A model generated the notes under the pieces. The model was not told the origin of the DNA and made no database searches. It was given only the letters and a program-made list of their open reading frames with translations. A program made the translations under genes and the position numbers. A stretch of DNA of 63,475 nt, filler included, from Cercozoa sp. M6MM (lineage: Eukaryota > Protista > Endomyxa: Ascetosporea), in the NCBI GenBank assembly GCA_040357565.1. It is 10 parts of 10 records of this genome, joined end to end, with 100 filler letters (N's around TTAATTAATTAA, not from the genome) between each part and the next. Parts side by side here need not be neighbours in the genome. Positions count along the whole stretch, not along the records: positions 1 to 6,674 come from JBDODJ010000707.1; positions 6,775 to 10,082 come from JBDODJ010001508.1; positions 10,183 to 16,010 come from JBDODJ010000841.1; positions 16,111 to 19,329 come from JBDODJ010001553.1; positions 19,430 to 22,886 come from JBDODJ010001447.1; positions 22,987 to 43,578 come from JBDODJ010000198.1; positions 43,679 to 51,397 come from JBDODJ010000600.1; positions 51,498 to 57,121 come from JBDODJ010000872.1; 2 more parts are not named here. The stretch is one strand, 5' to 3'. Positions 3,188 to 63,475 of the stretch are shown in pieces. Each line of letters opens with the position of its first letter. Position 1 is the stretch's first letter.

Positions 3188-3423
3188 CGTGACGTTGTTG
3201 GCTTCCATTGGCGTTCTGTATTCCCCAAACTCTAAGCCACGATACAAGCTTTACCTTAAGCCAGGAAACATGTTACTGTAAACTTAGTTCCGGAGTCGTC
3301 CGCGCGGAACTGGCGGAAGATGCAACTGAGTGAAACACCGGTACCGTGACTGTCAGCGGTGACAGTCCACTTTACTGCAGTATATTTATCGTGAAATAAA
3401 ATGAAAGCAACTGAAGTTGGTCG

Positions 3424-5666
3424 TCAGTCACGGAGATGCTCCCCAATGCGGAGACCATGTTTGTGGATAACTGCTGCCACCTCTGGCGGTAGGGGCACCT
3501 GAGTGCTCGCAGGTGTGGGCTGCTCCGTCGGTGATTTTATTGGAGTGTTTGTCGGTACTTTTGGCATTTTAGGGCTGCTCAAGGCATTTTGGGGCAGTGA
3601 AAAACAGGAATACTCCTTTCCAATCTGTAGCGCTGGGCCGTACCTTGGAAGTTTCCTTGCGCTCGGCTTTCGTCTGTCATGATCATCTATCGAGCGCTTC
3701 TTCTGAGATGGCGTCGTCGTGACAGATTCCGACAAGCGACGAGCTCGAGGCCCTGTTGCTCTTAATTGAATTCGCGGTTTGGTGACTTGAGCTCCTGCAA
3801 CTGGTTGCGCTCGTTTTGGGATCAAGGTCACCCTCTCATCCGGACGAGTAGCTTTCGTGGTGTCTTTGGCACTCTGCAGTTGACGGTGCTCAAGAGTCAC
3901 CGGTCTGACCGAGGTCACTTCCGTCTTGCTTTGGAAAAGAGTGGCAATCGAAAGGCGATTCGACTGTTCAAACTGACATTACCTGTCACTCAAAATTCGT
4001 TCGCGCGGCGATAGCTTTTTCGGCTTTATCACGTGCCCGTACGTGCGCCGCTCAATTTCTTTTCGTTGCTCACGGATCCGGATGTGTTCCTTTCGTAAGT
4101 TATCAACTGCTTGCTGCTTCTCGTGTTGTGCTTCAAGCCTCAGCTTTTCGGCTGGCTTTCTGTATCTTTCGTGCTTTTTCAGACGCGAATCAACCTCAAA
4201 ACGCGGCACTCGGCCTGGAAGAAAGAAACGGTGGTGCTCGTATATTTGAGGGAGAGGCAAGTGTAATTTATCACTCCAAAACAGTTTCTGTTGCACCTTT
4301 TGTTGGAGAACGAGGCGGCGACGACGGTTGAACGGGAGCTTTGTAGAGTGAGGGCGGTATCGGACTTGCGCGAAAACGCGTTTTTTCCCATTCACGTCTC
4401 CGTTGCTGTAGTTCAATACAATTTTGCAATTTCCTCCTCGCTTCTTCTTCCTCTTCTTTTTCTTGTAAGTGTTGCTCAAATTTACGCCGGGCGAGGCTTC
4501 GCAGATAAGTGCGATGCCCAGTAGCTGGTCCCTTTGGCCTAAATTTACAGTACCCGTTTAGTACGCATTGGTGTCGTTGGGAGTGTGAACGTTGCGACAA
4601 AAAGAAAACAATAAGTTGAGGTTTACACAGTGTAGTTTGTGTTGTGAAGCATCCAGATTTCACTGTCGCGCAGAATCGGTGCGTGATGGGACCCAGTCGA
4701 AAACACGAAGTTCTTACGCGCTGTAGCGGTAGCGTCAGGTGCGTGTGTGCATGCTCGATACCGGTCATTCCGCAGCTTTAAATCCATCGAAGGAATGTGT
4801 TGTATTCTATAGCATAGGGTCCACCAAGGATTCAACAAATCTGGGTGCACCCTTGTGAGCCAGATGCTATGAGCGGCATCAAGCAAGTAAAGTTTACATT
4901 ACCGTGAATGCAGAATGGCGAGTGCTTCGCCCACTGTTGGCGCTTCTTGGCTATAGCTGTCCGCAGACACAGAAGAAGCCTCAGTGTCCGACTGCTGCGC
5001 CAGTTGGCTTTCATCCGCTGTATTAAGTGTTGCGATAAGCTCCACTTCTCTTCGTCAATTGTGGCAGACAAGTTTGTAGTAAATAGGATGCCAATTTAAT
5101 CAAAGCAGATCGGGGTACAAACGCGCTCGCATCTCTGACCACAGCGACGCTGTCTTGCAAAACTGCTGCATGGCTTTTTCGCAGCCAAGCTCTTCAACTT
5201 CGTCGACCATTGCACCCAATGATTGCCTTGCTGTGAAATAAAAGCGTGGGACAGATAAATTTACATAAAATATATGTAGATATAAATTTATAGCGCCAAC
5301 AGAGAAATTACTCTCTTCGAGAAACGCCGTTGCGGCGGTGAAAAACCTAACTCGCAGCACGCTTCCCTCCTGACTGCACAAAAACGTGAAAGTGTATATA
5401 CCAACCCCATTCCCTGTTCGAAATGCACAACTGCCGTGACCCCCTTACCTTTTCTGGAGTTTGTGAAGAATAAAGCGCGACGTTTCAGTGAGTACGTTGT
5501 TGAGCTCGCAGATACGACTTAACAACGCAGGCTCACGTACTTCGCTGACAGGTGCGTCGGTGTGACTTTGCTCCACTGGCAGCTCGCGATGTTGCTGAAG
5601 GGAAACTTCAAGTTCTGACGCAAGCGACAAGCCATCATTTTGCGCCTCCGCCACTTGCTCAGACAT
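3424..5666 (-). CDS. Hypothetical multi-exon protein(s), partly coiled-coil and basic
   Basis: ATG at 5666 (MSEQVAEAQND...). ORFs 5100-5381, 4832-5071, 4623-4886, 3979-4479 and 3424-3918 can plausibly be linked by introns such as GTAATG..CAAAG near 3980. May be two genes. Confidence 0.4.
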
Positions 5667-6284
5667 TTAACTGGACTGTTTCAACCTCAGACAGCCAACC
5701 TTGAGGGCTGAAGTGTTATTCCGAGCCGAGATCATTTAAATTTGTCAGTGGTCAGGGTCAAGACGAGAAACTGTGCCGTGACTGTGCCCGATCCGCGCGG
5801 AACCGACGACGACCCAAGCCCCGTCCAAGTGTCGCAAGGAACTTGTCGAAAATGAAGGCGTTTTCGTCGAACTCGCCGAGTCGTGCTATTTTTGGCTTCT
5901 TTCAGTGCGCAGCGTTCTGTGCTCTGCCAGTGTACCGCGAGTACCACAGTTCGACGAGACGGCACAGCTTGAACTCAGTTGCAGCATTGGCATGCTCGGT
6001 AGTGACATGTCCGTGCGTGGAGAAACTGGTAGCTTTAGATGTAAAACTTATATGCCGCCAGGACTGTCTTGTTTAACCCACGTCAGTTGGACGGACGTGA
6101 CTGACTCTTGCTAGTGCCGTTGCTCTCTACTAGTCTGTTACAGACGACTCAAATTAAGCAATTTCCGCGGGTCTACCATCGAAGGAAAAGAGAAAGAGTT
6201 TCGTCTAAAAGAAAGAGCTTGGTCTAACTGAACTGACGACTTACTTCTTTTTTTTTTTACTTCAAACATACGGGACTGACTGAC

Positions 6285-6674
6285 TTACATGATGAGGCAC
6301 TTCTTCTTCTGCACACAGCGCAAAAGCAGCAGGTGACAATGGCGGGTCTACAGTAGAGTACAGCGTATGCTACCTTGGGAGAGGCGGGCCTCGACAACGC
6401 GGCGCGAACGGCCTCGTCTAAGAGCTCCGTGAGGTTCTTCTGCATCAGGGCCGAGCACTCGATGTACTTGACGGCGCCTATCTCCTCCTGCACCGCCAGG
6501 ATCTCGTGCTCGGCAACAACGGTCTGGTCTGCATATAATTTACATTTAAAAAGTGACTAGTCATCATACCCGCAATATCAATACACTATATTATAAAAAG
6601 GATATTATATGTATATAAATTAATATATATACGTATATATCTGTAGACTCGACTGTATGTACCATCATCGGCCC
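6285..6674 (-). CDS. Rac/Rho-family small GTPase, 3' part (5' end lost at contig end)
   Basis: [30 protein letters not shown] (G5 region); last exon KKKCLIM* gives a polybasic stretch plus CAAX box. Confidence 0.85.
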
Positions 6675-6774
6675 NNNNNNNNNNNNNNNNNNNNNNNNNN
6701 NNNNNNNNNNNNNNNNNNTTAATTAATTAANNNNNNNNNNNNNNNNNNNNNNNNNNNNNNNNNNNNNNNNNNNN
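6675..6774. other. Artificial contig linker N-TTAATTAATTAA-N (also at about 10127, 16055, 19374, 22931, 43623, 51442, 57166, 61405)
   Basis: Identical six-frame stop 12-mer inside N runs, nine times; genes are truncated at these points. Confidence 0.97.
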
Positions 6775-9303
6775 AATCCTCCTCTGCTCCGGCCGGAGGA
6801 GTCTTTCGTCTTGCCGGAGCATTCTACCTAATCGTAGCTGGTTTCCATTTGAGTCCTTTTGGCGGCGTTGGTGGACCCTGTGCCCTTATCGCATCGATGC
6901 GGGTTCGATTCTCAGTGAGCACATTTTTTACTTGGGGTGGAGCCCCTTCGTTTTCGACGTAAAACACAAAGGGAATTTTCCCTTGACAAAAGCCAGCAAA
7001 ATCCCAACAAAGTCCTTGGACTGCCGTAACGTAAGACTAAACTAGACTCAGACGACTTACCGTTAGCCAGCACGGTGCGTGTGACAACGAGACTCCTCCA
7101 TCTCCACGTCAAACGTTCCATTGGCCTGCTGGCCCTCCATCCATTTTTCGCGGAAGTACAAAAGCCAAGATGCGTTTTTCGGTCGCTGCTGATTCTAAGC
7201 CACACACGTCAATGTGCAGCCAGCACAATCAACCCGAAGACAAGAAACTCACCGTCTTAGGGTCTTCGATACCAGCCTAAACAAACACAAACGAGCCTCT
7301 TACAGATAACAACGCAAGTCCGTCAAAAGTGTACCATGCGCAGCATGCCGGTACAAGTGAAAAAGAAGGTGGGACAAGCTGCTTTTATTGCCGCGTTTTT
7401 CAGCGACGCGATCCGTCGATCGCTATAGCCAGCCGTGGTGCAGATCTCAACAAACGCGTTCATTCCCTAACCAGGAACCAAGCAAATCTAGCGCGGATCA
7501 ATGCGAGACAGAGAACTAAATCATACCTTGACAACCGCCTCGCGAAGTCGCAACTCCGCGAACTTTTCAACTCGATCGGCCGCCTTTTCCAGGGCGGAAT
7601 TCAACGGGTTCAGCCTCCTCGCAAGCGCTTGCTTTAAGTCCTACGAAAAAAAAGTTTCCTTGAAATAAAAACACAAGTAAGTTTACTAGGTACAGGTTCG
7701 CTGAGTTTTGCGTGAGCAACGTCGATAGCGCATTGAATTGTTTCCTGAATTACATTTAATACATGCAGAGATAGAAACTAAAACTGTTGTCCGATAAAAA
7801 TAAAAAGTTTTACGATAATTATGTCGGGATTCTCAATGCGGTACTTGTGCTCTGAGCGAAGCTGATCAACAATGCACGAAAGTGTGTTGCTTCCGAGTTG
7901 TAGCTTCAGTTTGAGGGATCGTCCGCGAGAATGCTTGCCCTTCGGAAAGACGTCCACGCGGATTTTCGATGGATCACTATCAATAACGCTCGCGCACACC
8001 TAAAACCCGACAACCGAACGGTTTGATAATGCGCGAGAGCATATCGAAGTTGAATTACTCCAAGGTGTTGAAGGTGCGTGCTCGTTCTCTGGAAGGATGA
8101 ATCATCAGTCTGTGCATAGTAGTTGTGGCACACGGACAGCAGAAGGTAATTAGGCATATACCGACACAGCACTGGCGCTCGAGACTGAAGAGCCAACCGA
8201 AACCATCGGCAAAGTGTCCGTCTGTGTGTGTGCCTGTATGTATGTATGTGTGTGTGTGTGTGTGTTAGCTCAACATACAAAAAAAGGATGTTCGAGTAGC
8301 TGAATCGCAGTCGGTCGTTGAGTCGGATCGGATTCGAGGCACTTTGACACAAGAGAATGGAGCATGTCGTTCTTTTGGACATGATTGCGGGCCTCCTGCA
8401 GTATTGTAGAATCTGCTGAGAAGATTCATGCAGCATATGAAAAACAAAAATAAGGTACCCGCTTAGATTTGGGGATTATGCCAGTGAAAAGTTGAACCGC
8501 AAACACGCCAAAGGCAAAAATGTCGATCTTTTCATTAGCATTGTTTCCCTCGCGCAACTCTGGTGCCTTAAACTGAAGTTTCACACAGACATCCACATAT
8601 ACACTACGTCACACTTTCTTCAGCTCAGAAGGATGATACATCTGGAGTCCCAACGTCGCTCAGATATTCCGTATGTTCCACGTGCTTGGACAGACCAAAG
8701 TCGCCAAGGCACACGCGACCGTTGTAGCGAAGAAAGACGTTTTGGCACTTGAGGTCGCGGTGTAAAATGCGCGGATTTTGAGTGTGCAGGACATGTAAAG
8801 CCTCCAAAACTTGCTTGCACCACCCCTTCATCAGACTGTTGCTGAAACGGAAATTGCAGTTCGAGCGCAACTACGTGTTCCAGTGCCAGATAACTCCAAA
8901 TGCAGGAGATGACGATCGAGATAGTACCAGATATTTTCGGACATCTGCCAAAGACCCTTGACACAGCTCAGTAGTGAATGCGACATTGCCCGAGTCATCC
9001 TCCCAGCTGTCCAACACCCGCAAAAAGAGTTCTGGGTGGGATTTATTGAGAGCCTACAAAGCGGTGTAACACAGACCCACGCACACAAGCAGGGACACAC
9101 AGGCACATGCAACAATGCACCCTGAGGATCGACACTTCACTCTCAATTCCTTGGATAGCTTTTTCCGCCAATTGTCTTGCGCTGTTGAGCTCACACAGCG
9201 CAACCCTTGCACCTTTTTCCGGGTCCCACGCTTCATACACGTTTTTGAATCCTCCGGTGTTAATCTCGCCCAGACGCCAGTATCGCGACGTACTAACAGA
9301 CAT
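6775..9303 (-). CDS. WNK-type (With-No-Lysine) Ser/Thr kinase, multi-exon; 3' end uncertain
   Basis: GGFKNVY (Lys in Gly-loop), VALCEL (Cys replacing the beta-3 Lys), ILHRDLKCQNVF, GDFGLS, spliced GTPDFKAPE, KIDIFAFG. Confidence 0.85.
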
Positions 9304-10182: not shown

Positions 10183-12705
10183 CACGTGTGAGTGTGAGTG
10201 AGACAGGCGACGGCAAGGTGCGCGTGTACGTGTTGCCGTCGGCGACAGACGGCGCGGCGGCGCGACTGATGAGTGTGCCGCCGCTACTGACACTGGGCGA
10301 CTCGACTGGTCAGTTTGTGGTCACCCACGTGGTCACCCACGTGGTCACTTAATCACTGTGGTCATCCACGTGGTCACTGGGTCAATGTGGTCACCCACGT
10401 GATCACTGGGTCAGTGTGTGTGTGCAGGCACTGTGTTCTGGCGCGTGCAGTTCAGTCCGTTCGCCGACCGTGTGTGGCTGTAGTTTTACCCTCGCCTCCT
10501 CTTTTACTCCATGTTTACCGCCCTGTTTACCCCCCCCCCCTGTTTACTCCTGTTTACTCTCCCTGTTTATCCATTTTTACCCCCTGTTCACCCTCCCTGT
10601 TTATCAACCTCTTACCCCCTGTTTATCCCCTGTTTACTCCCTCTGTTACCCCCTCTTTACCCCTGTGGTTTGGGCAGTTGTGCCACGTCGCACTGCGGTC
10701 GCGTGGCGGTGTGGGACCTCGCGCTGCTGCTCGATGAGGAGACTCGCGGCAAGGACAGTCAGAGTGGGGACAGTCAGAATAGAGAGGGTCAGAATGAGGA
10801 GGGTCAGAATGAAAACAGTCAGAATGAGGACGGTGCCATGTGCGATGACGGTGACACTGACGGTGACACTGACACTGATGCTGATGGCGACACGTGCCAC
10901 GAGCCACTGCAGTGCTGGCAGGCACATGCCAACACGGCCGTGCGCAGCGCGTCGTTCGCGCCCTTCGCGGCGCACCTGCTGGCCACCTGCGTACCATTCG
11001 GACTGCCCCTTTGTCCACATGTACCCCCTTTGTTTGTACAGGCACAAGACGGCACACTGGCCATCTGGAATGTGCGAGATCCGCGACAGCCTTTGTTAAG
11101 GGGGCGGTAAACTCCCCTCTCTTTTTCTACTTTAGTACTGACAGACAATTGTGTAGTGCGAACCAGTCGCCTCTGTTGGATGCCGTGTGGCTGCCTGGTA
11201 CGATCCGACAGCTCGTTTATGATGAGATTTAAAATCACTGCCCAACAGGCCAACAGTCGTTGCTGTGTGCGTCGGAACAAACTGCGAACTTTCGGTGTCT
11301 GCGCTGCTTCCATTTTGATCATGTACAGTCACTCCGCGAATCCAGTCTTAAACTGACCTTCGGATTTCTGTGTTTTTGTGAGTTCTTTTTCTTTTTGTTT
11401 TGAAGGCGCCAGCGACGCAGTTCGCGCCGGAACTGGAGAGCGCCGAGATGCCGGACAGTGCGGCCTGGCAGGTCAGTGTCAAGATCGACGTGCAAAGTAC
11501 GCAGGGCCTCGCTTTGTCAAGTCGGCGCGGCAACACTCGCGTTGAGTCGCTTCGATCACTCATGCAGTACGGTAGGAATTTTCTTTTTTGCAGATTCATC
11601 CCAGACTGTGTTGACTGACTTGACACTGCGACTTGACAGAGACACACACGAAAGTCAAAAGAGTAGTCACCAGTGACACGCCGATCTTGGGTACCTCATC
11701 TGTGTTCAAGTACTCTGCTTCAACTGCTTTCTTTCAGCTGTGTGGTCATTTTTTTGTGTGATCAGTCTGTGCGGCTGCCTACAGCAGTGGCGTGGTCTAC
11801 CTGTACGAATGTTTGCTGGGTGACGCCTACTGGAAGCCGCGAAGCTTCGTGACGCAGTGTTTGCATCATATCTTGTCAGTAAACGTTCCGTCCGCGCGGA
11901 AGGTACTGTCCATTTGAAGAAACGCTGATGTCGGGTTATCTTTGCGCGTTCTAATAGCTGGAACTCACACTGGCACCGGGTTTCACACCGAGTCTGGGTG
12001 TGGTAGGTTCGCATACAACCTTCGGTGAACCTGTGCTCACTTTGCTGTGAGAGTAGCCTCGTCCGCGTAAGAAAAAGAAACACAAGGTCGCGGCCGACCT
12101 GAACAAAGAGGATAAACAGCGGGAAGAGCGACCGCCTCGGGTACTGCTTACTTTTGTTTTGTACTTTCCAGTTTGGCTGGTTTGAACGCGTGCAGAAGGC
12201 AGAAAACCCGCTCAATGACACGCTTAACGAAACCACTGTCGTTTATGGGTGCAAACTTTCTTTCTTCGTGTGTTTCTTTTTGTTTCTTGCTAACTTTAAT
12301 TGTTAACATCTTTCTTTAGCGTGGTACAAGCTGGCGCGGACGAAACGCCGGCGCAGCCGCAGAAGGATTTTGTCGTGCTTAACGACGAACTGGTACATTT
12401 GAGTCATAAACTTAAGTGCACATGAACTCACCACACCTGTCTGCTGTTGCAGATCAATCAATGGACAGTCGATCTCAATGGCAATCTGACTCGCCACCGG
12501 GTTGTTGCCATGGTAGCACTCTGTTTTGATTGCTCAATACACGACGTATGATTGTTCGAAGGGCGGCAATGCCGGTCTTGTCCGCGTCAGTTTCGTGCTG
12601 CGTTCGCCGCTGGACGACGAGCCTGACTCGGACGAAGAAGCCAGCGGAAGCGACAGCGGCGCTTCAACTGACGACGGTTACGGTTCCTCAATCTTTGACT
12701 TCTAG
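10183..12705 (+). CDS. WD40 protein similar to TFIIIC subunit GTF3C2/Tfc6, 5'-truncated
   Basis: PLQCWQAHANTAVRSASFAP..LLAT-CAQDGTLAIWNVRDPRQP and C-terminal VAMGGNAGLVRVSF resemble my recollection of GTF3C2 WD repeats; TAG at 12703-12705. Confidence 0.6.
10314..10665 (+). repeat. Intronic simple repeats: GGTCACCCACGT units (10314-10412) and TTTACCCC tract (about 10483-10665)
   Basis: Direct reading; lie between WD40 exons. Confidence 0.8.
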
Positions 12706-15577: not shown

Positions 15578-15725
15578 TGTTCCAGCATGATCTACAGTAT
15601 TCGCGCGGAAGCCATTTTAAGACTTACAAAAAAAATCTCAAGAGAGGTTGCGTGGACCCGCCGGGTATCATGACCTACTGAACACCTGTGTTTGAGGAGA
15701 AAGCCTTGAGCAAGCTTTTGCAGCT
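15578..15725. repeat. Dispersed three-box non-coding element, copy A
   Basis: Shares three ordered boxes with 42028-42154 on another contig. Confidence 0.7.
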
Positions 15726-16110: not shown

Positions 16111-16917
16111 AGTAGTGCTTCTTATCCCCCTAACGCAGGTGTCGGATAAGGAACTCGGCTACCTGTCGGACCTGCTCTACCGGTAACCTTGAATCTCTAC
16201 CCTGCCTCTTTGGTCGCTGCGTATCCTTGGTCATCTTGCACCCAGAGTCAAGGCGCGTATCGTGCGTGATGACATGCGTGACGGCACTACCGATATGGTA
16301 CCCCCCCCCCCCCCGTTACCTCCCTTGTTGTTCTGCTTGTTACTCGCTACTGTAGCACGTGCTGGAGGCCTTGCTGCCGGTCGTGAACAGTGTCGGTTTT
16401 GCTAGACGTGTGCGCAACTGTACTCACGGTAGGACCTGCGTTTCTCACTTTGTGGATTCTCCTCCGCGCGGACGGTGATTGTCGTCGTCATAGGTGTCGC
16501 GCAGCCGCAGCTGGTGTTCTCGCACTGGGAAGTTGTCGACGAGGACCCACTTTGGGTGCTTCCTCTCTTTTCGGGGTGAAGGGGTAGGAGTAAGCATGTA
16601 ATTTGCGGCGTCTTTGCAGGTACCGAAGACGGAAGAGGAACGCGAAGAGTGGGGCCATGGGCGACAGGCCGCCGACCAGGTACCGCTTACCCTCCCCCCC
16701 CCCCCCCTCCGAATCTACACACCATATGTGCCATCTCACAGGTCTTCAATGCCGCGAAGGAACTTATGCGCAGCATCCGCAAGCGCAAGGGTGCAATGAC
16801 ATTCTGAGCAATGTCGTATGCATCATGCTCTTTCCTTGTTGAGTAGGCCTCGGTATGCGCGACGAGAAACTCGTGACGGACGCAGCCAAACAGCGCACGC
16901 GCGGCAAGGGCCAGTAG
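16111..16917 (+). CDS. EFL1: Elongation factor-like GTPase EFL1/Ria1, 3' part
   Basis: Spliced [73 protein letters not shown], matching the EFL1 C-terminus. Confidence 0.85.
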
Positions 16918-25193: not shown

Positions 25194-25711
25194 CGTCGTT
25201 GGTTAGTTAAGTCTCCTAGGAAACCAACTATGTAGTTTCCCTGCACTTGTCTGGGGTGAGTCACAAGAGCATGGCCGAGTCTACCGCCCACTTAGGGTAG
25301 TGTCAGCTAGCGTAGTGCTCCGCTTGGTCGAGATCAGCCGCAGCCCTTTTGTTTTATTCTGCACTCGACTGTACACGACAGTATTCGATTGGCACTGTAC
25401 TCGACTGTCGTGTAAATAATACGATAGCAATGACACGATAGCAATGATGGGTTTCAATCCGTTTCCCGCCGTTTATCGATCGCGCAACGAGTTCAGTTCG
25501 AGTTAACACTTTGGTTTAGCGTCAGCTACATTACATCCAATAGACGGACAGACAACGCGAAAACACTCGATTGGTTCGCGTCGCGACCTGACTGGCTTTC
25601 GTAAATTGACGTCCACGCGGAAGATTTTTGAATGACAGATTTTCCAAACAGTGTCACAAAAATCTCCTCACTTCTCCATGAGCGTAGGCGAGAAGGTGCG
25701 TGTTGAGAGAC

Positions 25712-42027: not shown

Positions 42028-42154
42028 TGTTACAGCATGAACTACTGTATCCGCGCGGAAGCAAACCTTAGAAAAATCCTCAATTGCAAGAGAGGTGTCG
42101 TGTGGAAGAGTTTGACGTGTGTTCGCTGAGAAGCTGAGCAAGCTTTTTGCAGCT
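42028..42154. repeat. Dispersed three-box non-coding element, copy B (contains TCCGCGCGGA)
   Basis: Matches 15578-15725 in three ordered boxes. Confidence 0.7.
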
Positions 42155-48170: not shown

Positions 48171-50501
48171 TTAGTTGTTCGTTTGACGTCGCAATAACCG
48201 AAATATCAGAAGAGGGAAGTTACCCCAAGGTAGAGCCGTCGTTACAGTTGAGAGTGTTGAGAGGTTTGTAAAAGCAAACCCTCTTGCCTGCTCAAGATAG
48301 AGCAAGTCAGTTGCTTTGGTGTCAACAAGCACGGTTCCTTTGAGGTATACCTGGCATTGGAAAGAGGCCTTTTTTAATTCTTGCCGCAGTTTCGAGCTGC
48401 TCGCCACTACCAAACACGCTAGGCAACAAGGTTGCCAGCTTTCGACCTTAGCAAAACACAGACGCTGATTGGACCTCGCTGAAGCGAAGGGATCCGTTCA
48501 GTTCAGAATCAAAACTCCGACACGAGATCGTGAACCAGCTGGTGCCAACTCAAGTCGGAAGTCGCATTTTCAAACGAGTCGGCAAGGTGACGCAGCATGA
48601 GATCGAGCATACGCCGGTACTCGGGAGCACTAGTGTCGATGGTATCAACAACACCTGTGGAGCCTGAAGTGCCCTGGAACTCGGCCGGCAGGCATGACAA
48701 GACTCGCAGCAGATTGAGCATCGGTGCCATCGAAAGCATCGCTGTGGTCTCGACTTGCTCGGTTCGGATACGGTCCACCAAGAAAAAGCCTCCTTTCATC
48801 CATTGCTCAATGTCTCGCATCCACTCAGTCGTTAGCAACATGTGCAAACCGTGATTCGCTCTATTTAAAAAGAAAACCAAACTAAACGATCAAAACTAAC
48901 TCAGTTTACGTTAAAGAGTACCGATCAAGTGCATCACGTCCTTTTCGCGTGCGACACCAGTCAAACTCGTCGTACAGTAGCTTTTTAAAGTGCTGCGCCT
49001 TTAACACGACCTGCCAACAAGCTTGTTAAGAGCGAGTTAATCAAGCGAGCAACTGTCAGGTAAAATACCGAAGGTGTCGATGCCCAGTGACGCACGTGCC
49101 ACTGAGAAAATACAAGAAAATGACGCAATAAGCTTTCGTGCTTTAAACCACCCGTACCGATACAGTGTGCTCCATTATATTGTCCAGCGACGAGTGCGCC
49201 TTCAAACGGAATATCAGTTGTAAGTTAAAAAACTGAACCAAAAATGAAACTGTCGTACCACAACAGTGTCGTAGTTGTCGTACATCACATCATCCATGTC
49301 GAAAATGTAGTCCACTTGCTTCAGAGACGGCAATGCCTGTTAAAGCACTCCACGTGAAACACTCAACTGGATCTTTTTCTTTTTACCTCAGCTGTGCGCT
49401 GGTACCGATCGAACCAAAACATCAGCTTGTGTCCCTTGCTTTCGAGATGCTCGAGTGTTGTGTCAGCAGGGCTAGCGACCAGGTCACTTTTGGTTGCCAA
49501 CCACTCCTGTGGCAGGTGCAACTGCACACTGAACCAAGGGGAATTGAACACGATAAACTTCAGCTTTGAGTCCGAGAAAAAGAGCTATGAACAAAGCGGT
49601 ACCTTTCTAGCAGAGCCTGCACGTGAGACGCACATCGCTCCAGCGAAATTTGAGCATTTGACGTACACTAGACAACCAAAAAACGTTCAACAAAATGATG
49701 ATTGGTCAAACAGGAGAAACGCACAGCGAATTGAGCCTCCAGAAAGATCACTTCGCGCGGATTTTCAATCAAGAATTCGCGCACTTGCTGTGCCATTTTG
49801 TACATATACAGACTTGCTTAAAATCACACAAAGGTGTACCTGCATTAAAACATCGATGCGAGTGCACCGCACGCTGTGATGCTCCACCAGATATCTGCAA
49901 GCAAACTTGAAAACTTGACAAGAGGACAAAGCTTGAAATTAAAAGAGTGACGAGAAAACTACCGTGTGCCAGGCACGTTTGGGTGAGAAGGCGTGTCCGG
50001 CAAATCATGATCGTCATCGAGAAGAAAGGGACGCAGATCAAGGTAACGCACACCTCGCTCCAGCTGGTTTCGAACGCTCACCTGCCGGCAAAATAAATTA
50101 ATTTGAATGAAGAAACGTTCAAGCTTGAAACTCTTTAAAACTTCAACTTTGCTGGGATACTTTCTGGTTTTGTAGCATGACATTGACGCACTTGGACCGT
50201 GGCAGCAGCTTGAGGTACTCATCGCCGGGAACAATGATATCCTTGTTGTCAAAGACTTCGCCCGTGTTGGCGTGGTGTGACCCTAGCACCAAGGCAAGGT
50301 ACACAAAGTATTGGCTATGTAAAGAAAGTGGCACCAACTAGCGTGAGCTCTTTCAACTTGGTCTGCAGGAACAGAGAGCCCACGTTTGGGTCTTGCTCTA
50401 AAAGAACGTGAACAATCCAGTTCGAGAAGGAACAAGGTCAGTTTACTCAAGGCAGTCATCCAGTGAGGCAGATTCTGCTCCCAGAAGGCGGGAGAGGCCA
50501 T
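48171..50501 (-). CDS. PI-PLC X-domain (PLCXD-like) protein
   Basis: LPHWM; GSHHANT; VRNQLERGVRYLDLR; HSH; ENPREVIFL. Confidence 0.75.
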
Positions 50502-50848: not shown

Positions 50849-51330
50849 ATGAAACTGCTTGCTACACTTCTCGCTGCTGCCTGCACGGCGTCGAGTGTCG
50901 ATTTTTCTGGGTATAACAATGCTGCACTCTCTCTCTCTCTCTGAGTTGGTGGGGTGACTGCTTGATAATTGCACACTTGCACGAGTGATGCACATTCCTA
51001 TCGTACATGTGAAGTTTTGTGTTTTTTTGTGTTTTTTGCGTTTCTTGGTTTTTGAGGGTGTCCCTTACTGTGTAGCCACAAGGTGCTGCGTGCCCGTCTG
51101 CCGTCGAGTGAGCAGGGTGCCAAGCACGCTGCTGCTCAGATCGAGCTGCTCGTTGAGGTTGGGCTTTTTTAGAGGGACTCGCTTTTGGTGATTCGTGGGC
51201 ATTTTCTGTACAGAACGGTCAGGTCGACCTGTGGCGCCATCCGCGCGGAAGCGGCGATTTCGTCGATGTGCGCGTGGCGCCCGAGCACTTGGACTCGGTG
51301 CGCATGGCGTTCGGCGCCGTCAACGCCGAG
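50849..51330 (+). CDS. M14A carboxypeptidase A/B precursor: signal peptide and activation peptide only (truncated)
   Basis: MKLLATLLAAACTASSVDFSG|HKVLRARLP..LLVE|NGQVDLWRHP..VDVRVAPEHLDSV. Confidence 0.75.
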
Positions 51331-52126: not shown

Positions 52127-52157
<31 letters not shown>

Positions 52158-52351: not shown

Positions 52352-52421
<70 letters not shown>

Positions 52422-55400
52422 GCAGATAGATAGGTAGATAGATAGATAGATAGGTAGATAGAGAGACAGGGAGATAGATAGATAGACAGGTCGATAGATA
52501 GACAGGGAGATAGATAGATAGGTAGATAGGTAGTTAGATAGATAGGTAGATAGACAGATAGATAGGTAGATAAGATAGATAGATAGATGGGTAGTTAGAA
52601 GATAGGTAGATAGGTAGATAGATAGATAGGAAGGTACCTCAGCCAGGTGCCGCCGGTGCGCCTGCGTCTGCCGCAGCGATTCGATGCGCGCGCGATTCTC
52701 GCTGCGCACTCGTTCTACCTTGGCCCAGGCCTGCAGGGGTACGGTAAAGGGGGTAGGGGCAGGGAGTAAAGGGAGGTAGGGGTAAAGGAAGTTAAAAAGT
52801 TACCGCATTGGTCAGTTTCTGCAACTTAAGTTCCGTTCGTTGCGACTACTCAGACAGGCAGGGGTAAGGGCAGGGGTAAAGGGGTAGGGGTAAGGGGTAG
52901 AGGGTAAAGGGGTAGAGGGGTAAGGGGTAGAGGGGTAAGGGGTAGAGGGGTAAGGGGTAGAGGGGTANNNNNNNNNNTAAGGGGTAGAGGGGTAAGGGGT
53001 AGAGGGGTAAGGGGTAGAGGGGTAGAGGGGTAGAGGGGTAAGGGGTAGAGGGGTAAGAGGTAGGGGCAAAGGGAGGTGGTAAGGAGCACCTCCGACTCGG
53101 AGAAGAACTCGTCGCACGCTGCGTCGAACGTGCCAAACTCCTTGATCATCTTGCTGCGGGGGTAGGGGGTAAAAGGGATAGGAGGGTTGGGTAGGGGATA
53201 GGAGGGGTAGGGTAGGAGGTAGAGGGGTAGGAGGTAGAGGGGTAGGAGGCAGAGGAGTAGGAGGCAGGGGGGTAAAGCACCTCTCGTCCTGCATGAACTG
53301 CGCCAACGGGAACGGCAGGAACATCTCGTACACGATGTGTTGCTGTCCATATGGGGGTACACCGTTTACGTGGCTACAACTGGTCTAAATGGACGGGCGT
53401 GTCCAAACGTACCGTGTACTCGGCGGCGTCGGCGGCGTCGGCACTCGTGGCGGCGACGGCGACGCCGGAATCGTTGTTTCGCTGGTCCGCCGCACTCTCC
53501 GTCAGCGCAATGGCTACACAGTGGTCACATGATCGATCACATACGATCATAGTGATCAAAGATCGATCAGAATGATCATATTCGATCACAGTGGTCACAC
53601 ACGTACCCTCGGTTTTCTGCTTGCGTCGCGGACCCTTGCGTTTGATGCTCGCGGCCGCTTTCGGCACCATCTGGTACACACGGGACAGATACACATGTAC
53701 AGTCGACCCGGGGCTCGTCCATTTGGACCGGACGGACCGTCGGTTTGGACACAAGGCAGCGGTACCTCGGAGCGAGCGACGACGAATCCGCGCGGCTCGG
53801 ATCGCACCAGTTCCAGCACGGTCTGCGACTCGCTCACTGCCTCCTGCGATTCGGCACACCACATACACGTGCGCACGAATGATCGGTGTGCATGATCGGT
53901 GTGTGTGTGTGATCGATCAACCGTCAGACACTGACTGAGTGAAAAGCGATCACTGGGTGGAAGTGGAGACTACCTGGACACGCGACAGAAAGGCCTCGTC
54001 GTCCAGGTCGATCTGGTCGACACAGAGTGACGGTGACAGATCGCACTGCACCAAACCGTGATCGCACATGGCCGGACCCGACTTGAGTTCACTGCGCACA
54101 CGTGTGTTCGTTTCGCCTTTTTGTATTTTGCTCAGTGACCACAGAGAAACAGAAAGCACCGAACAAGCACGCGCGAAAGCGAATATTTCTCGCGCAGTTT
54201 TTTCGGCGAGATTTTCTTGGTTTTGCGTCCCTTTTTTTGTTCCCTAACACGCGGCCTTAATCATGTGTCCACACACTGGCACAAATGGACCCCCGGTGCA
54301 CATGTGTCCGTTTGTACATTGGTCCCTCCAGTGCCTCGGCGTATTGCTCCTGCGCATGTCGCAGCCAGTCGCGCAGCGTCTCCAGCGACGGCAGCTCCCT
54401 AGAAGCACAGAGGTGCGGTAGGTATCGAGGGGGGCTGGGCAGAGTTTAAGGAAGGCTACATCGAAGCCTCGCGCTCTACAGGTGTGCGGAAGACAGAGCC
54501 GACAGACAGCGGGTCCTGGAGGACAGGCAGGCGGAACAGGATACAGTAGTATAGTATGATAGTCTAGGACAAGGCAAACAGAGTGTGTACAGCGTCATGT
54601 TCGGCGTTTCGCACGAGTGCAATGACGCAGAACTCGTTGTCGCACAGCAGAATGTTGCCCAGACCGAAGAGTTGCAGCACCAGGTGCGTTTGTCTATCGG
54701 GGAGGGGAGGGGGTAATAGAAGGGTAAAGGGTATAGAAGGGTAAAGGGTAATAGAAGGTAAAGGATACAGGGTAGGGGTGTTGAAAGGGTTAAAGGGGTT
54801 GCCAAAGTGGTTAAAGGGGTTGCCAAAGTGGTTAAAGGGGTTGCCAAAGTGGTCAAAGGGTTGTAAAAGTGGTCAAAGGGGCTGTTGGAAGTTAAAGGGC
54901 TGTGAAAGGTATAAGTTGCACCTCTCCTCAGTGCCGAAAGTGATGCAAATCACGCGATCCACGCCCATCTGACGCACGCCCGTGATTCGACGGTTCTTCA
55001 AATGCTTTCGCAGTTTCGCTGTTCAAGAAAGCAAAAGACATAGCAAAGAAACAGACCAAAAGAAGCAGAAACAAACAACAAGAGCTACCAGCAAACGCAT
55101 TCGGAGCATCCGTGGTCTCGCGCTGATACTGCGTACAGTGCACTCGCACACCCGACTCCACCAGCAGCAGCTTCTTGTTATCGCCGCCGCCCTGTCAGAA
55201 AACGTAAGCAACATGCACCAGGCATACAGCAAACAAAAGCACAGGAAAGCTAAAGCACCGTTTTGAACAGATAAGTCGTGCTGTTGACTGAGTAAATGTT
55301 GCCCACACGAGCGCCTTCCTGTGTGGAAAAACCGCAACATTGTAATCACCCAAGCAGCAGAATTTATTCAGCGGAAACTGCACCAAAACGGGCTTTAGGT

Positions 55401-55753: not shown

Positions 55754-57121
55754 ATGGATGTCGCTGCGCGGTCGCAGGAGTTCGCGCGGGCGTACGCTCT
55801 CGACCGGTTGCAGCAGGTGCAGATTGGTCTAGTTTAGTTTTTGCTCTGACGGACTTGCTCTTAATCGGCGCTACTGCAGGCTCTGCGTGAGGCAGGATGG
55901 GTGCACGCGATCGCGATCGTTGATTTCGACCTGCGCGAGGGTCAGGTATCTTGTGGCTTGTAGCTTCCGCGCGGACGCCAAGTAAGGTGTGTGTGGGCAG
56001 ACCCTGCAACTGATCTGGCCGGTCGACGCACTGAAGCGAGAGCGATCGGCACTGGCGAAGCAAGCGTTTCCCGACAGCAACGCGACCAGTCTGGGCGACA
56101 CGGTGTTCGTGACGCGCTTTCCGCGTGCCGACGGAAGCGCCACTTTCAACGCTTTTGTCTGCTTTCGGCAGGAACGAGACGACTCGCTTCCGCGCGGACA
56201 CTTTCAGCAAGCTTTCGTTCTGGTGAGTGAACTGCTTCGGCCGCAGGTGCTTCTGCCGACTGTTGCTGCCATCGGACGCGGCTTCTTTCCGCTGCGACAC
56301 GATGCGCAGGCTGCGAACGCGTTTCTCGCATCCGCACTCAGTCAAATCTCGACGTGGAGGTACCAAGCTCTCCCTCTTTTTTAATGCAAAGCTAAAAGTT
56401 TGCTTTGATCTGATTTCGAAAGTGAAAGCTTTGTTTGTAACAGCGAAAGCTTTGATTTCGAAAGTGAAAGCTTTGATTTCAACAGCGATAGGTTTGATTT
56501 TTAAAGTGAAAGTTTTGATTAAAGCTGAACTTAAACTTCGCAGTTCTGATTTGGAAATCAAAAACTTCAAAACGAGCGACTTTTTGATTTTGAATCTTTG
56601 AGTTGAAAGCTGTGTTGTTCGAAGTTGCAGAGCTTTGCCTGTGAGCAGCAGCGAAAGTTCGGCCGAGTCGAGTGGCGAAACGCTGAGTCTGCCGTTGCTA
56701 GGAACCGTGATTTGCACCGAAGCAGTCGGCGAAACTGCCGCCTGGCAGTACACCCCGACGACTGAAGCGTATGCAGCTTTCTTGTGAAGATTAGTTCGCA
56801 CTTGCTGACGGTGCAGGGATCATCGAAGTGACGATCATCGAAGTGACGATCATCGAAGTGACGGTGCGAGTGCCGCGAGCGATCAGACGCACGTGCGACA
56901 TCACGAGCCGAGCGATCGTGAGATCGAGTTTTTGCAGGTGCCGTTCTCGCGCGTGCTGTCGCGTGCTCGACCGATCCGTGCGTTTCTGGACACAAATACC
57001 AAAAAGAGACTTGATACTTTTTGGTATTTTTGGCGTTTCTGCAGAAATGGAGGTCGGAAACGGCCGCGGCGACGTGTTTTGCGATCTGACTGGCATGCTG
57101 TGGCATCTGGTAGCTTGGTCT
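55754..57121 (+). CDS. DENND6: DENN-domain Rab GEF DENND6/FAM116-like, 3'-truncated
   Basis: WVHAIAIVDFDLREGQ|TLQLIWP..AFPDSN..GDTVF..CFRQERDDSLPRGHFQQAFVLVS..QISTW. Confidence 0.85.
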
Positions 57122-57221: not shown

Positions 57222-57825
57222 GGGGGCGGTACCCTTGTTCCTGACAAGGAAGGTGTGCGCAGCGACGTCGAAGGGCAGCGCCGAGGCCACGTCGCGCGAC
57301 ACGTGGCCCTGTGTCCAGTCACACACACACACGTGGTCACTCAGGTCACGTGGTCACTCAGGTCACGTGGTCACTCAGGTCACGTGGTCACTCAGTCAAC
57401 TCTGACTGGGTGAACTGAGAGGTCACTGGTACAATCACGGTGATGGAGTGCACGGAGGGACGGTTGGCCGCGTGCAGTGCGCGCACGACGCCGTTGTCAC
57501 CGACGGTGCGATCATTGTGACCACCGTCATTGCGATCATTGTGACCACCGTCGCTGTCACCGTCACTGTCTGAGTCGCTGTCGGTGTGACCACTCCGCGC
57601 GGCCTCCAGCGGCAGCACCGTCACCGTGTCGATGCGATAGCGACGCAGACCATGCGACGGCGACACCTGGACATCAGTCACTCAGTCAGTGGTCAGTCAG
57701 GGTGTCCGCGCGGAGCACCTGCTGCTGTACCTTGAGCTGCCAGACACCGGCCTCGGAGCACGCGGCGGCGTCGAAGCGCGTCTCAACGACGCCGCCGCTC
57801 TGCCCGACCCGCGTCAGAACCTCTG

Positions 57826-57858
<33 letters not shown>

Positions 57859-59201: not shown

Positions 59202-59289
59202 TGCAGTGCCACGTGCTCAAACACTTTCAATTCTGTGTTAACTGGGCATAAGAAACGTTTTGGGGCTGTTAGAACGTGGAGTTTGGCAT

Positions 59290-61220
59290 AATGATGCCCA
59301 GCTCGGTGCGTTCATTTTTTTCATGATCGCTATGAACCATTGCCGTGTATATGTGCGTGTATGTGTGTTTGCGTGCAGGTGTTGGTGCCATGCAGCATCG
59401 TCGTGTTGCTCTATGTGCTGCCACGGATCCTGGTAGAGCTTGCCTCTCCTAGTGTGTACCCTCTCTCTATGTTGTGTAGGGCTGGATCGTGACTCGCGTG
59501 CTTCGCTTCGTGTTCGGAAGGGTGCCATTCGTGTTGTGTGTTGTGTCGGTATAGAAGGTTGTGCGTGCGCAGAGACTGCGTGTGCGACTGTCGGAGACAG
59601 GTGGAGCGTCTGTCCGTGCCACGATCGGTATGGACAGTGCCCCTGTGTGTGAGGTCGGTGTATGGGAGATATTCGAGTGCAGGGGCCGTGTCATGGCGTC
59701 CGTCATTTTCGCACCCGTTCACTCTGACAGTTGAGAACGTGTGCTGTCAGGTGTCCTTCATGGACCGGTCGCACTTTGATGTACCCTGTCTCTGAGGATG
59801 TTGTCGCTGCTACCCCCTGCCCTGTCCCGACCCTTAGTGGGCCTCGCTGTCGACGCTGTCGCAGGTGCTGCAGAACCTGCCGTCACAGCCGCAGATGCCA
59901 GCGTTTCTCAGGGGCCTGTGCTGTCGGGTATGTCGCTTGCCTACCCCTCCCTTACGCCCGTACCCTTACCCCCCTTACCCTTATCCCCCTGTACCCCTAG
60001 GCCACGGCATCGCCGCGCATGCGTTCGCTGGCGGCACGTGCGGCGTGCTTCCTGCTGGCACGTGTGTCGGTGCAGCTGCGACAGGTACTTTTGTCCGCGT
60101 GGACACGTGTCTCACTGACTGGGGGCAGGACTAGCTGACTGTGTGACTGACTGTACGGTGAACACGTGCGTACAGGTGCAGCTGGCCGTGCGCTTCGCGT
60201 CGGCCGAGCGACACGTGGCCTCGCTGAGTGACGACACACGTGCGTGTGGTACCTTGTCTCAGTGATATTGATACCTGACCACGTGGTCACACGGTGTCAC
60301 TGACTGGACTGACTGACTGACTGACTGACTGACTGACTGACTGGGCCACGTGTGTGAGTGCAGGCGGCACAGTGGACACGGAGAACGCGGCCGGTGTGTC
60401 GCTGTGCGTGCTGCTGCGACAGGTGCGACTGCACGTGGCCAACGCGCGATCGCACGTGCGACTGACGGTGCAGGTACTGCCTGTGACGGTGTCACTGAAG
60501 GGCGTGTCCGCGCGGACGTCCTCCACCGGCACGCACCGTCGTCAGACACTGGCCGAGTTCGGACGCACCGACCTGCAGCTGCACCTGCCGCTCGGTTCGC
60601 CGCCCGGTCCGCGCGGACGCGCCTCGTCCGACCTGGCACCCACGCTGCCCGAGCATGTATCTCACCCCCCTTTACCCCCCCTGTTACCCTTGCTTTACCC
60701 CCCCTGTTACCCTTGCTTTACCCCCCCGTAGGGCATCCCGGCCGGGCACACGCGAATCGATGTGTCGCACGGGGACACACGTGTCTTTGTGTCGCCCTTC
60801 CTGGCGCGTGCGGTATTCTTTACCCCGCTCTTTACCCCCCTCTTTACCCCCCCTCTTTACCCCCCTCTTTACCCCCTCTTTACCCCCCTTTTTACCCCCC
60901 CTTTTACCCCTCTATCCCCTTATCCCCCAGGTATCGGCGGCCCTGGCGTCGATTCCGGACTGCAGCGAGGTGCAGGCACTGATGGCAGGCGACGGTGGCG
61001 ATCAGAGTGGACACGTGCTGACTGGGCGCAGCGACGGTGACACGGAGGGTGACTCAGACGGTGACACTGAGGGCGAGACACCAGTGGTCACGTGGAGTGT
61101 CGACTGCCGCTCGCTCAGCGCGGACGTGTTCGAGAGCGACGCCAGTGCCGCCGCCGCCGCCGCGCTGCACGGCGACCTGGTGCGCGTCGTCTCGCTCGCC
61201 GGCGCTGCCGACGACGGTTT
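59290..61220 (+). CDS. N-terminally anchored, beta-rich protein, possibly FMP27/BLTP2-like lipid-transfer protein; 3'-truncated
   Basis: Spliced VLVPCSIVVLLYVLPRIL|GWIVTRVLRFVFG (TM) followed by alternating beta-strand patterns (LRQVRLHV, VTVSLKGVS); the family call is tentative. Confidence 0.4.
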
Positions 61221-61460
61221 TACCCCCCTGTTTACCCCCCCTGTTTACCCCCCTGTTTACCCCCCCCACTTTACCCCCTGTTTACCCCCTGTTTACCCCC
61301 ACTTTGCCACCCACTTTGCCACCCACTTTGCCACCCACTTTACCCCCCTGTTTACCCCCCNNNNNNNNNNNNNNNNNNNNNNNNNNNNNNNNNNNNNNNN
61401 NNNNTTAATTAATTAANNNNNNNNNNNNNNNNNNNNNNNNNNNNNNNNNNNNNNNNNNNN

Positions 61461-63475
61461 CCCCCCCCCCTTTGCCCTCTTACCCCCTCTTACCCCTCCC
61501 CCCTCTTATCCCCACCCCAGGTGTTCTGGGAGAGGCTGGACGACCTCGTGGCGGCCGATGCGAAAACGCCGCGGCCACTGCCGCCGCCCGGTGCGTTTCT
61601 TGCTTTTGTTGTTTCTATTGTTGTTTTTTGTTGTTGTTTCTTTTTGTTGTTTCTATTGTTGTTTTTGTTGTTGCTGTTGCTTTGTTGTTTTCTTTTTGTT
61701 GTTTTTGTTGGTTTGTTGTTTTTGTTGTTTTTTGTGTTTCTTGTTGTTGTTTCTTGTTATTTCTTGTTGTTGTTTTCTTTTTGTTGTCGCTTCTATCNNN
61801 NNNNNNNNNNNNNNNNNNNNNNNNNNNNNNNNNNNNNNNNNNNNNNNNNNNNNNNNNNNNNNNNNNNNNNNNNNNNNNNNNNNNNNNNNNNNNNNNNCCC
61901 CCCCCCCCCGTGTGAAGCTCTTCCCGTCGGTGCCGTGCGAAGTGATCGATCGCATTTCGGAGGTTTTACCCCCTTTTTTACCCCCCCCCTTTTTTTATTC
62001 CCCTTTTTACCCCCTACCCTTTGACCCACCTGTACCTCCATTACTCCCATTAACTCCCATTCACCACTTTACCTCCTCGGTTGTGGTAGTTCTTTGACGC
62101 GATCGAAGGCGAGGATGGCAGCTTGGCACGGTACTTGTGTGGACAGGCTTGCTGGCTTGGGGTATTTTGGGGGGAGAGGGTATTTTGGGGGAGGCTCCGC
62201 GCGGACGGGAGTGACTGTGCAGTTACTCGGTGCTGGTGAATGCGCGCGAGTTGGTACAATATGTGCGCGCGTTGGCTGACGACTCCGGCTGGTGCGACCT
62301 GGTAGTTCACCCCCGTTTACCCCCCTGTTTTCCCCCCTATTCACTCCCCTGTTTTACCCCCTGTTCACCCCTTGTTTACTCCCTGTTTACTCCCTGTTTA
62401 CTCCCTGTTTACTCCCTGTTTCCTCCCCTTCTTACTTACCTATTTACCCCCCCTGTTTATCCCTGTTTACCCCCCTGTTTATCCTTGTTTACCCACCTGT
62501 TTACTCTGATACCTACCTTTGCCTTCTTAGTCCCCTTTACCCCCTAACCTGCTTTACCCCCCCCCCCGTAGCGGCACGAGAGAGTCTCAGTGATGACGAC
62601 GTTGACGCGACTGTGGCAGCGTCAGGCGGCGGTACTCTTTTACTCCCTTTACCCCCTTTACTCCCCCTTTTTCCCTACCCCTTTACCCCCTTTTCCTCTA
62701 CCCCTGTTTGCCCCCTTTGGCTCTTTTGAGCCCCCACCTCCACACTTTACCCCTTTACCCCCCTAGTGCTCGTTCCTGATGAAAGCCGAGTACTTAAATG
62801 ACATCGCACATGCCAAGCTGCAGGTATTACTCCCTTTTTACCCCCCTTTACCTCTATACCTTTTTACTCCCTATACCCCCTGTACCCCTTTGCCCCTTAT
62901 ACCGCCCATTTACCCCCTTTACCCCTTTCCCCCCTTTTCCCCCTTTACCCCTTTACTCCCTCTACCCTCCTTTACCCCCTTTACCCCCTTTACCCCCCCC
63001 GGGACAGTCGCTGGCGCCGAATCCGGCGAAAGTGCGGCAGCGCATTCGCGAGTCGGACGCGCTGTTCAAGCGACTGGAGGTAGCCACTCTGGACCGTCCA
63101 TCTGGACCGTCCATCTAAACCGTCCATCTGGACCGTTCATCTGGACCGTTCATCTGGACTGTACATCTGGACCGTTCATCCGGACCGTTCATTTTTTGGT
63201 ATATTGGACAGAAGCGGGCAGCGGAGGGCAAGGACACCAACGAGCGTGAGGAAGAGGTTACCCCACTGTTTACCCCCCCTGTTTACCCCCCCCCCCCCCT
63301 GTTTGCCCCCCTGTCCCTGTTTACCCCCTGTTTACTTCCTGTTTACCCCCCTGTTTACCCTCTTAAGCCCCCCTTTTACTCCCCTTTTTACCCCCTGTCT
63401 ACCCCTGTCTACCCCATGTTTACTCCCTACACCCATGTTTACCCCCCTGTCTATCCTGTTTACCCCCCCCCCCCC
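61461..63475 (+). CDS. Internal fragment of a hypothetical gene: short exons among TTTACCCC- and TTG-rich introns
   Basis: Exons VFWERLDDLVAADAK, LVNARELVQYVRALADDSGW, FLMKAEYLNDIAHAKLQ, SLAPNPAKVRQRIRESDALFKRLE. Confidence 0.55.

Follow-up and report, generated by a model that had tools for sequence, protein, structure and literature searches.

Hyper-abundant, frame-independent motifs of the Highly Iterated Palindrome 1 (HIP1) type are known from bacteria, and after thirty years the function of HIP1 is still debated. In the parts of the published accounts drawn on here and below, cyanobacterial HIP1 (GCGATCGC) is described as 15- to 300-fold enriched in all reading frames and in intergenic DNA, and chromosome structure has been put forward as what it is selected for (PMC5861425). 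New copies arise by substitution (PMC13756078); the word carries soft palindromic extensions to 10 to 14 bp, its one-off copies deviate most at their ends, and a methylase-plus-mismatch-repair ratchet was proposed to explain HIP1 (PMC4390886). In this study, we examined the 10-bp palindrome TCCGCGCGGA in a stretch of 63,475 nucleotides, filler included (the window), from Cercozoa sp. M6MM (assembly GCA_040357565.1), and found that it is a HIP-like signature in a eukaryotic nucleus, with an over-representation that is real in the window. A eukaryotic case would show that nuclear genomes can be overprinted likewise, and would point to a new DNA reader, methylase or repair bias in Rhizaria.

The host is a marine amoeba, published under the name Lemnamoeba sinaloensis (Apofilosa, Rhizaria); its long-read assembly comprises 27 Mb in six chromosomes, 53% GC, 8,704 genes with 13 introns per gene and a median intergenic distance of 162 bp; many simple repeats and 33 repeat families, ten of them unclassified terminal inverted repeat (TIR) families, were reported, as were MSH2/3/6 (PMC13746701). 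A first, sequence-only reading of the window had stated that no eukaryotic equivalent of the motif was known, and our search of literature titles and abstracts for the TCCGCGCGGA 10-mer and for iterated palindromes in eukaryotes agreed with it, finding no nuclear case among the matches listed, in a coverage that excluded subscription journals. The word stem "palindrom" is absent from the sections covered of PMC13746701 and PMC11069148, and CCGCGCGG, which becomes the full motif when flanked by T and A, is absent from four supplements of PMC13746701.

The window joins 10 contigs by fixed linkers (N44-TTAATTAATTAA-N44); it covers about 0.25% of the genome, and the conclusions drawn here rest on 17 sites. 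Its 62,355 non-N bases contained 17 exact copies of TCCGCGCGGA, one every 3.67 kb or 273 per Mb, distributed over 9 of the 10 contigs, with only contig 6775-10082 lacking one. Markov models trained with the sites removed predicted 0.043 to 0.171 copies at orders 0 to 5 and 0.49 at order 6, and 100 dinucleotide shuffles gave a mean of 0.09 copies and at most one, which puts the enrichment at 100- to 400-fold. Among the 159 other palindromic 10-mers with eight G/C, 141 were absent, 15 occurred once and 3 twice, none more often; ACCGCGCGGT, GCCGCGCGGC and CCCGCGCGGG had no copy in the window, and when 10-mers were ranked by dispersion only simple repeats were comparable. The sequence-only reading had given the same 17 copies in 9 of 10 contigs, at about 1 per 3.6 kb against about 0.06 expected; all were refound, and its claim of an exceptional word held in the window both against Markov models of orders 0 to 5 and against other CG-rich palindromes. 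Extrapolated from the density in the window, the 27-Mb genome would hold about 7,400 copies (95% range, 4,300 to 11,800).

The core of the motif is strict. The centre was CG in 17 of the 18 TCCG-NN-CGGA words of the window, and 17 of 23 CCGCGCGG words were flanked outside by T and A, forming the full palindrome; TCCGCGGA occurred once and TCCGCGCGCGGA not at all. The perfect copies are listed below without strand, signs in brackets giving the strand of the gene or exon concerned; exon and intron classes were read by eye except where homology backs them.

3299..3308: exon or non-coding; in or near a minus-strand gene without a name
5792..5801: non-coding; a hand-placed ATG (5666, -) lies 130 bp downstream
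11891..11900: putative exon (+), Ser-Ala-Arg, 2 nt before a GTAC donor; exon without Pfam match
16463..16472: putative intron 16429-16493 (+); the gene matches EFG_C weakly
20857..20866: putative exon (+), Arg-Ala-Asp, of a 20.5-kb gene; no Pfam match
20909..20918: putative exon (+) shared with the 20857 copy, 52 bp away, Pro-Arg-Gly
33832..33841: METTL16 exon (-), Phe-Arg-Ala-Asp; PF05971, gap-free against human METTL16 (6du4_A)
35163..35172: putative short METTL16 exon (-), Val-Arg-Ala-Asp; 25-residue search without match
42050..42059: non-coding; follows a Hydrolase_4 gene, about 50 bp beyond its stop
45009..45018: putative exon (-), Pro-Arg-Gly, of a TPR-like gene
51240..51249: carboxypeptidase activation-peptide exon (+), Pro-Arg-Gly; PF02244, gap-free against 1pyt_A
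55966..55975: intron 55946-56000 of the P0121 gene (DENND6/Avl9-like)
56189..56198: P0121 exon, codons Leu106(T)-Pro107-Arg108-Gly109
57705..57714: putative intron 57730-57667 (-)
60507..60516: exon (Ser-Ala-Arg) or 72-nt in-frame intron 60474-60545 (+)
60608..60617: putative exon (+), Pro-Arg-Gly; 101 bp from the 60507 copy
62196..62205: putative intron 62131-62222 (+)

Nine of these sites were classed as exonic, four as intronic (16463, 55966, 57705 and 62196), two as lying outside coding sequence and two as ambiguous (3299 and 60507); homology backs exon status at three of the nine (33832, 51240 and 56189). The exonic copies read Pro-Arg-Gly at 20909, 45009, 51240, 56189 and 60608, Arg-Ala-Asp at 20857, 33832 and 35163, and Ser-Ala-Arg at 11891, so that the three frames hold five, three and one or two copies, respectively, beside six non-coding ones. 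The earlier assignment of copies to exons in all three frames stands for Pro-Arg-Gly and Arg-Ala-Asp, which are homology-backed, while Ser-Ala-Arg lies on putative exons and at 60507 is perhaps intronic. Its two METTL16 copies reading Arg-Ala-Asp are borne out by homology at 33832, the exon at 35163 being putative; among its intergenic copies, 5792 and 42050 were retained and 3299 may be exonic or non-coding. The copies it placed in introns (16463, 55966 and 57705) each fell inside one, that at 55966 in the P0121 gene and the others in putative introns. Its "CDC27-like" label for the gene at 45009 was not confirmed, the only match being TPR_4 at E = 0.087.

Coding demands do not force the motif. 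The word from TCCGCGCGGA made up 38 of the 84 occurrences of 9-mers able to code Pro-Arg-Gly (96 words, both strands, any frame), and the corresponding shares were 38 of 148 for Ser-Ala-Arg and 26 of 51 for Arg-Ala-Asp. Pro-Arg-Gly is also encoded in a ribosomal protein S29 exon that lacks the motif, which shows that the peptide does not require it; the histone and ribosomal protein genes of the window contain no copy.

Alignments over the exonic sites bear on how the copies arose. Three sites could be compared with homologs and all three were gap-free, the six other exonic sites having no usable homolog. Residues 2-30 of the carboxypeptidase activation peptide correspond to positions 21-49 of the PF02244 profile without a gap over the 51240 site, and the exon also aligned to 1pyt_A without a gap (E = 0.35 when taken alone). 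In METTL16, the last exon matches the human protein (6du4_A; its residues 3-53 to 246-296), again gap-free across Phe-Arg-Ala-Asp. The third site lies in the gene for P0121 (labelled Cercozoa sp. M6MM): exon 56001-56222 is identical to part of it, all seven P0121 pieces map to the window, and Avl9/SPA/DENN domains were present in 5 of 6 homologs tested. We took 149 homologs from the best 150 of 286, of which 143 cover the site and 6 were dropped; 136 of the 143 are of equal length over the 23-residue span around the motif. Arg108 is found in 143 of 143, Gly109 in 140 and Pro107 in 30, and the motif in P0121 thus appears to combine synonymous codons at invariant residues with a tolerated residue at a variable position. 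His110, whose first base is the preferred flank base, occurs in none of the 143 (Tyr in 98, Phe in 31); since P0121 departs from the consensus at several neighbouring columns (e.g., Gln113, found in 5 of 143), this protein change fitting the flank is suggestive only. The gap-free alignments, one of them over an invariant Arg, indicate that the copies at the three testable sites arose by substitution and not by insertion or as an artefact. Together with the Markov counts, the codon-word shares and the repeat survey described below, this supports the earlier statement that no codon, tandem-repeat or transposon effect is at work.

The bases next to the core were also biased. In the 34 half-sites, the first base after the core was A or C in 27, the second G in 21 and the third C or G in 27, which extends the motif to a soft palindrome of about 16 bp, [C/G]-C-[G/T]-core-[A/C]-G-[C/G]. 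The dinucleotide [A/C]G followed the core in 18 of 34 half-sites versus a context-dependent background of 0.15 to 0.22 (P = 2e-7 to 1e-4, with about 180 dinucleotide-position tests possible). It was seen in 11 of 18 coding and 5 of 12 non-coding half-sites (P = 0.04 for the latter), as well as in 8 of 22 half-sites of one-mismatch copies (P = 0.006 to 0.02), compared with 55 of 410 in three-mismatch controls. The flanks, which the sequence-only reading had called mostly unrelated, are indeed non-homologous but not random. Enrichment was graded: about 260-fold for perfect copies, about 7-fold for one-mismatch copies (11 versus 1.6 expected, P = 1e-6) and 1-fold for two-mismatch copies (22 versus 24.7), three-mismatch copies likewise being at expectation (205 versus 210). 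The one-mismatch copies, again without strand, are the following.

7953..7962: position 4, G to A
15600..15609: position 2, C to T
21729..21738: position 8
22708..22717: terminal position
25612..25621: position 4, G to A
34636..34645: terminal position
49752..49761: position 2, C to T
53787..53796: terminal position
57594..57603: terminal position
60094..60103: position 7, C to T, equivalent by symmetry to G to A at position 4
61115..61124: position 3

Folded onto positions 1 to 5, the 11 changes numbered 4, 2, 2, 3 and 0. The same C-to-T change at C7 accounted for 3 of the 11 (0.08 expected); it could stem from deamination of a methylated base or be a tolerated variant, the numbers being small. 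From the strict symmetric core, the soft symmetric flanks and the graded enrichment we infer recognition by a dimeric DNA-binding protein that contacts a strict 10-bp core and, more softly, its flanks. The biased flanks and the graded one-mismatch enrichment are the best evidence for such a protein, and we consider it likely that a reader of the motif exists. A hairpin or RNA element was rejected as the basis of the motif: none of the 17 60-base contexts folded better than shuffles (z = -1.7 to +1.3), and an Rfam search returned nothing.

We then compared the motif with described systems, whose features are again given from the parts of the sources drawn on. Like HIP1 and the alternate HIPs of cyanobacteria (PMC4390886, PMC5861425, PMC13756078), it is a short, GC-rich, perfect palindrome that is strongly enriched (15- to 300-fold there, 100- to 400-fold here), lies in all frames and in non-coding DNA, spreads by substitution, has soft palindromic extensions and enriched one-off copies, and occurs about once per gene. 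Of the marks of a HIP, the window shows the enrichment above 15-fold, the occurrence in three frames and non-coding DNA, the gain by substitution and the palindromic extension. Further marks of HIP systems are a cognate orphan DNA methyltransferase with methylation of the site, positions shared by related genomes and a periodicity of 10 to 90 kb, the longest contig of the window being 20.6 kb. In contrast to HIP1, the amoeba motif is another sequence with a 10-bp strict core, set in eukaryotic chromatin with spliceosomal introns, and no cognate methylase is known; GCGATCGC itself is not among the 25 commonest palindromic 8-mers of the window and the host is a rhizarian, so that this is not HIP1 proper. 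Uptake signal sequences and DNA uptake sequences (USS/DUS) of Pasteurellaceae and Neisseriaceae (PMC1626085, PMC2817400), which a competence machine takes up with sequence bias, share the preponderance of perfect over one-mismatch copies used in PMC1626085 (17 versus 11 here). Unlike them, the amoeba motif is a palindrome, neither a paired-terminator arrangement nor a hairpin was seen, and no DNA-uptake system is described for the amoeba in the literature covered.

Two eukaryotic site types resemble the motif in form. Fungal zinc-cluster regulators bind everted CGG half-sites, and the core can be parsed likewise, with a CG spacer between two CGGA half-sites that face outward; in the amoeba, however, the spacer is fixed (17 of 18) and the sites are not promoter-bound. 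The CGCG element of BANP, a BEN-domain protein, also belongs to a eukaryotic nucleus and is likewise palindromic, ten bases long and centred on CGCG, but its place is at transcription starts, and reports of the BEN domain come from metazoans and viruses (PMC10206803, in the part drawn on). Only 1 of the 17 amoeba sites lies in a promoter-like position (300 bp before 20 start codons, 7.5% of the sequence), most being in gene bodies, which differs from this promoter type.

Scans for at least two nearby copies returned 34 and 22 stretches of viral contigs and at least 120 of metagenomes (40 with short flanks only), and a three-copy scan of GTDB returned 9 loci. Among the matches listed, no prokaryote or virus carried the motif in dispersed form, only local repeats or GC-rich chance pairs, although rare or low-density cases can escape such scans. 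The most dispersed matches had 5 copies (L029; 76% GC, 0.42 expected) and 4 copies (L016; 0.96 expected), and five of the nine GTDB genomes, counted whole, held 1 to 23 copies per Mb versus 273 here. Three metagenome contigs of about 50% GC (L056, L123 and L131) have an element in common whose two motif copies, spaced 31 bp, lie inside a longer inverted repeat; it looks like a repetitive extragenic palindromic (REP)-type or miniature inverted-repeat transposable element (MITE)-type element of some prokaryote. The genome of one further match (L157, in G004) has 50 motif copies, as against 7 for the reversed control word; flanks agree among the three copies read, so that a dispersed repeat is likely.

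As a tentative explanation, we propose that a symmetric protein recognises TCCGCGCGGA and that biased repair or conversion has let its copies accumulate. A two-fold symmetric protein would read the motif in double-stranded DNA; this reader, either a methyltransferase or a factor that protects or marks the site-bearing strand or allele, would bias repair or gene conversion toward the motif, and point mutations would then accumulate it in exons, introns and spacers by a ratchet akin to those put forward for HIP1 and uptake sequences. Copies would be retained where synonymous codons or variable residues permit, and the ratchet may serve strand or self marking without selection on each copy. We rank it first because thousands of position-free genic sites with a sharp consensus would be hard to maintain by site-by-site selection. 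The window may offer, though we would not yet count on it, the first HIP1/uptake-type signature in a eukaryotic nucleus: some 7,000 copies of a 10- to 16-bp palindrome written by a reader or methylase via biased repair, bending protein sequence and possibly serving to distinguish the cell's DNA from DNA of bacteria or viruses that it has eaten.

Several observations weigh against the ratchet. For HIP1 itself, conservation data favour selection over biased repair (PMC5861425, in the part drawn on). The strain is reported to be essentially haploid, and the sections covered of PMC13746701 describe neither DNA uptake nor sex, which leaves the substrate of conversion unexplained. The CpG observed/expected ratio was about 1.0 overall (0.9 to 1.1 in nine contigs and 0.66 in the repeat-rich last one), i.e., without depletion, and no local CpG excess near the sites was seen in the window. 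The 150 longest of the 206 open frames of the window, in which short exons can be missed, yielded neither a methyltransferase, a repair factor or a reader nor any DNA methylase, transposase or non-histone DNA-binding family. Finally, 6 of the 17 sites lie no more than 500 bp downstream of one of 20 start codons placed by hand, a zone that makes up 16% of the sequence. This hints at a role tied to genes, with a P value (0.04, post hoc) that is optimistic given an incomplete start list (one start dropped, several genes not placed). The sequence-only reading had seen in the motif a genome-wide DNA-level signal; a DNA-level, frame-independent profile like that of HIP1 and uptake sequences stands, and neither its genome-wide status nor a link to methylation or a methyltransferase is established.

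Close behind the repair or conversion ratchet, and likewise in need of a reader, ranks a possibility to which we give somewhat less credence, namely that the copies are under selection as binding sites for a single abundant protein that organises chromatin or acts as a general regulator, such as a nucleosome-excluding factor, a condensin or cohesin loader, or an origin or kinetochore anchor. The strict core, soft symmetric flanks and graded one-offs fit it equally; the median intergenic gap of 162 bp would force such sites into genes, the extrapolated copy number is near the number of genes (8,704), and the excess in the first 500 bp of genes, weak as it is, points the same way. Precedents are the argument that HIP1 is selected for chromosome structure (PMC5861425) and the CGCG-centred 10-bp palindrome read by BANP in vertebrates (PMC10206803), both as given in the parts drawn on. 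On the other hand, a start codon follows within 300 bp at only the one site, the majority of the 20 genes whose start was placed lack a copy and some carry two, perfect copies outnumber one-offs, unlike at ordinary regulator sites, and the sites are out of phase with a weak CpG periodicity.

A sequence-intrinsic mutational sink without a dedicated reader, through a Z-DNA-prone CGCGCG core or template-switch perfection of near-palindromes, is unlikely: the genome is rich in simple repeats (PMC13746701, in part) and other palindromic 10-mers and 12-mers are in mild excess (100 versus 67 and 40 versus 18), yet a single word among 160 equally GC-rich palindromes is affected, CGCGCG outside the motif reaches at most 1.6-fold, the related words TCCGCGGA and TCCGCGCGCGGA are all but missing, and no site forms a hairpin. 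We give still less weight to scars or decayed remnants of a mobile element (excision footprints or MITE ends), as proposed for GCGCGCGC in another genome. Young elements, too, typically show more perfect than mismatched copies, and the genome has its ten unclassified TIR families (PMC13746701, in part), but a 10-bp insertion should shift the frame, and the three exonic sites, one on an invariant Arg-Gly, have no indel. Moreover, no site lay in the 20 largest of at least 60 direct-repeat families or the 25 longest of 962 inverted pairs, and the left and right flanks beyond the core were not complementary (3, 7, 4 and 6 of 17 at positions 1 to 4), which together with the gap-free sites argues against adapters, transposon scars and MITEs. 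A library, assembly or contamination artefact is highly improbable: the assembly is a draft, but the motif encodes invariant residues in frame within intron-containing eukaryotic genes, no copy sits at a contig end, and an adapter would not produce soft flanks and one-off copies.

Local GC at the sites was 0.57 versus 0.52, and of the 16 sites that could be tiled, 11 lay in the GC-richest third of 500-bp tiles, where a share of 0.42 would be expected (P = 0.03, post hoc), a crowding that a recombination-linked process might give. Across the whole window, a weak CpG autocorrelation peaked near 170 and 345 bp with an amplitude of 1 to 2%, above other dinucleotides. At 160 to 172 bp it was reached by 0 of 60 shuffles at first (172 bp) and by 0 to 15 of 150 with other settings, a few repeat-rich segments carrying the signal; it could be an exon-intron rhythm or nucleosome-linker methylation and is not robust. 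Huff and Zilberman reportedly put forward a linker-methylation model in 2014. Such a model was not supported for the motif, the CpG signal not being robust and the sites not being in phase with it. DNMT6 is reported in Rhizaria (PMC9998398, in the part drawn on), which says nothing yet on Lemnamoeba; DNA methylase terms are absent from four supplements of PMC11069148, which hold gene ontology enrichment and small tables and no gene annotation, and the part covered of PMC12344493 mentions neither CGCG nor Rhizaria.

Other features of the window were noted in passing. Intron donors are mostly GTAC by eye (262 GTAC in the window), and introns are often filled with gene-specific simple repeats (TTTACCCC-type, CAACT, AGAT), whose type tends to recur across the introns of one gene. 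With the motif masked, the next dispersed words were AGAAACGC (18 clusters versus 3.4 expected) and TAAACTTA (10 versus 0.9), both probably intron signals. The divergent H2B/H2A intergenic region contains a sequence of about 35 bp twice in opposite orientation (13384-13420 and 13689-13725, by eye), likely a histone promoter element, and the minus-strand gene at 35529-37887 matches Sas10 (PF09368, E = 8e-4). A second palindrome, CACGTG, is locally dense in 57222-61360 (contig 9), with 24 copies versus 4.7 expected, 10 of them in 60000-60500, and at 10.2 to 11.0 kb (10183-11000), with 6 versus 1.1; positions 1-57121 overall hold 31 versus 23.7. Four of its copies form part of a 17-bp tandem repeat, and the others have varied flanks.

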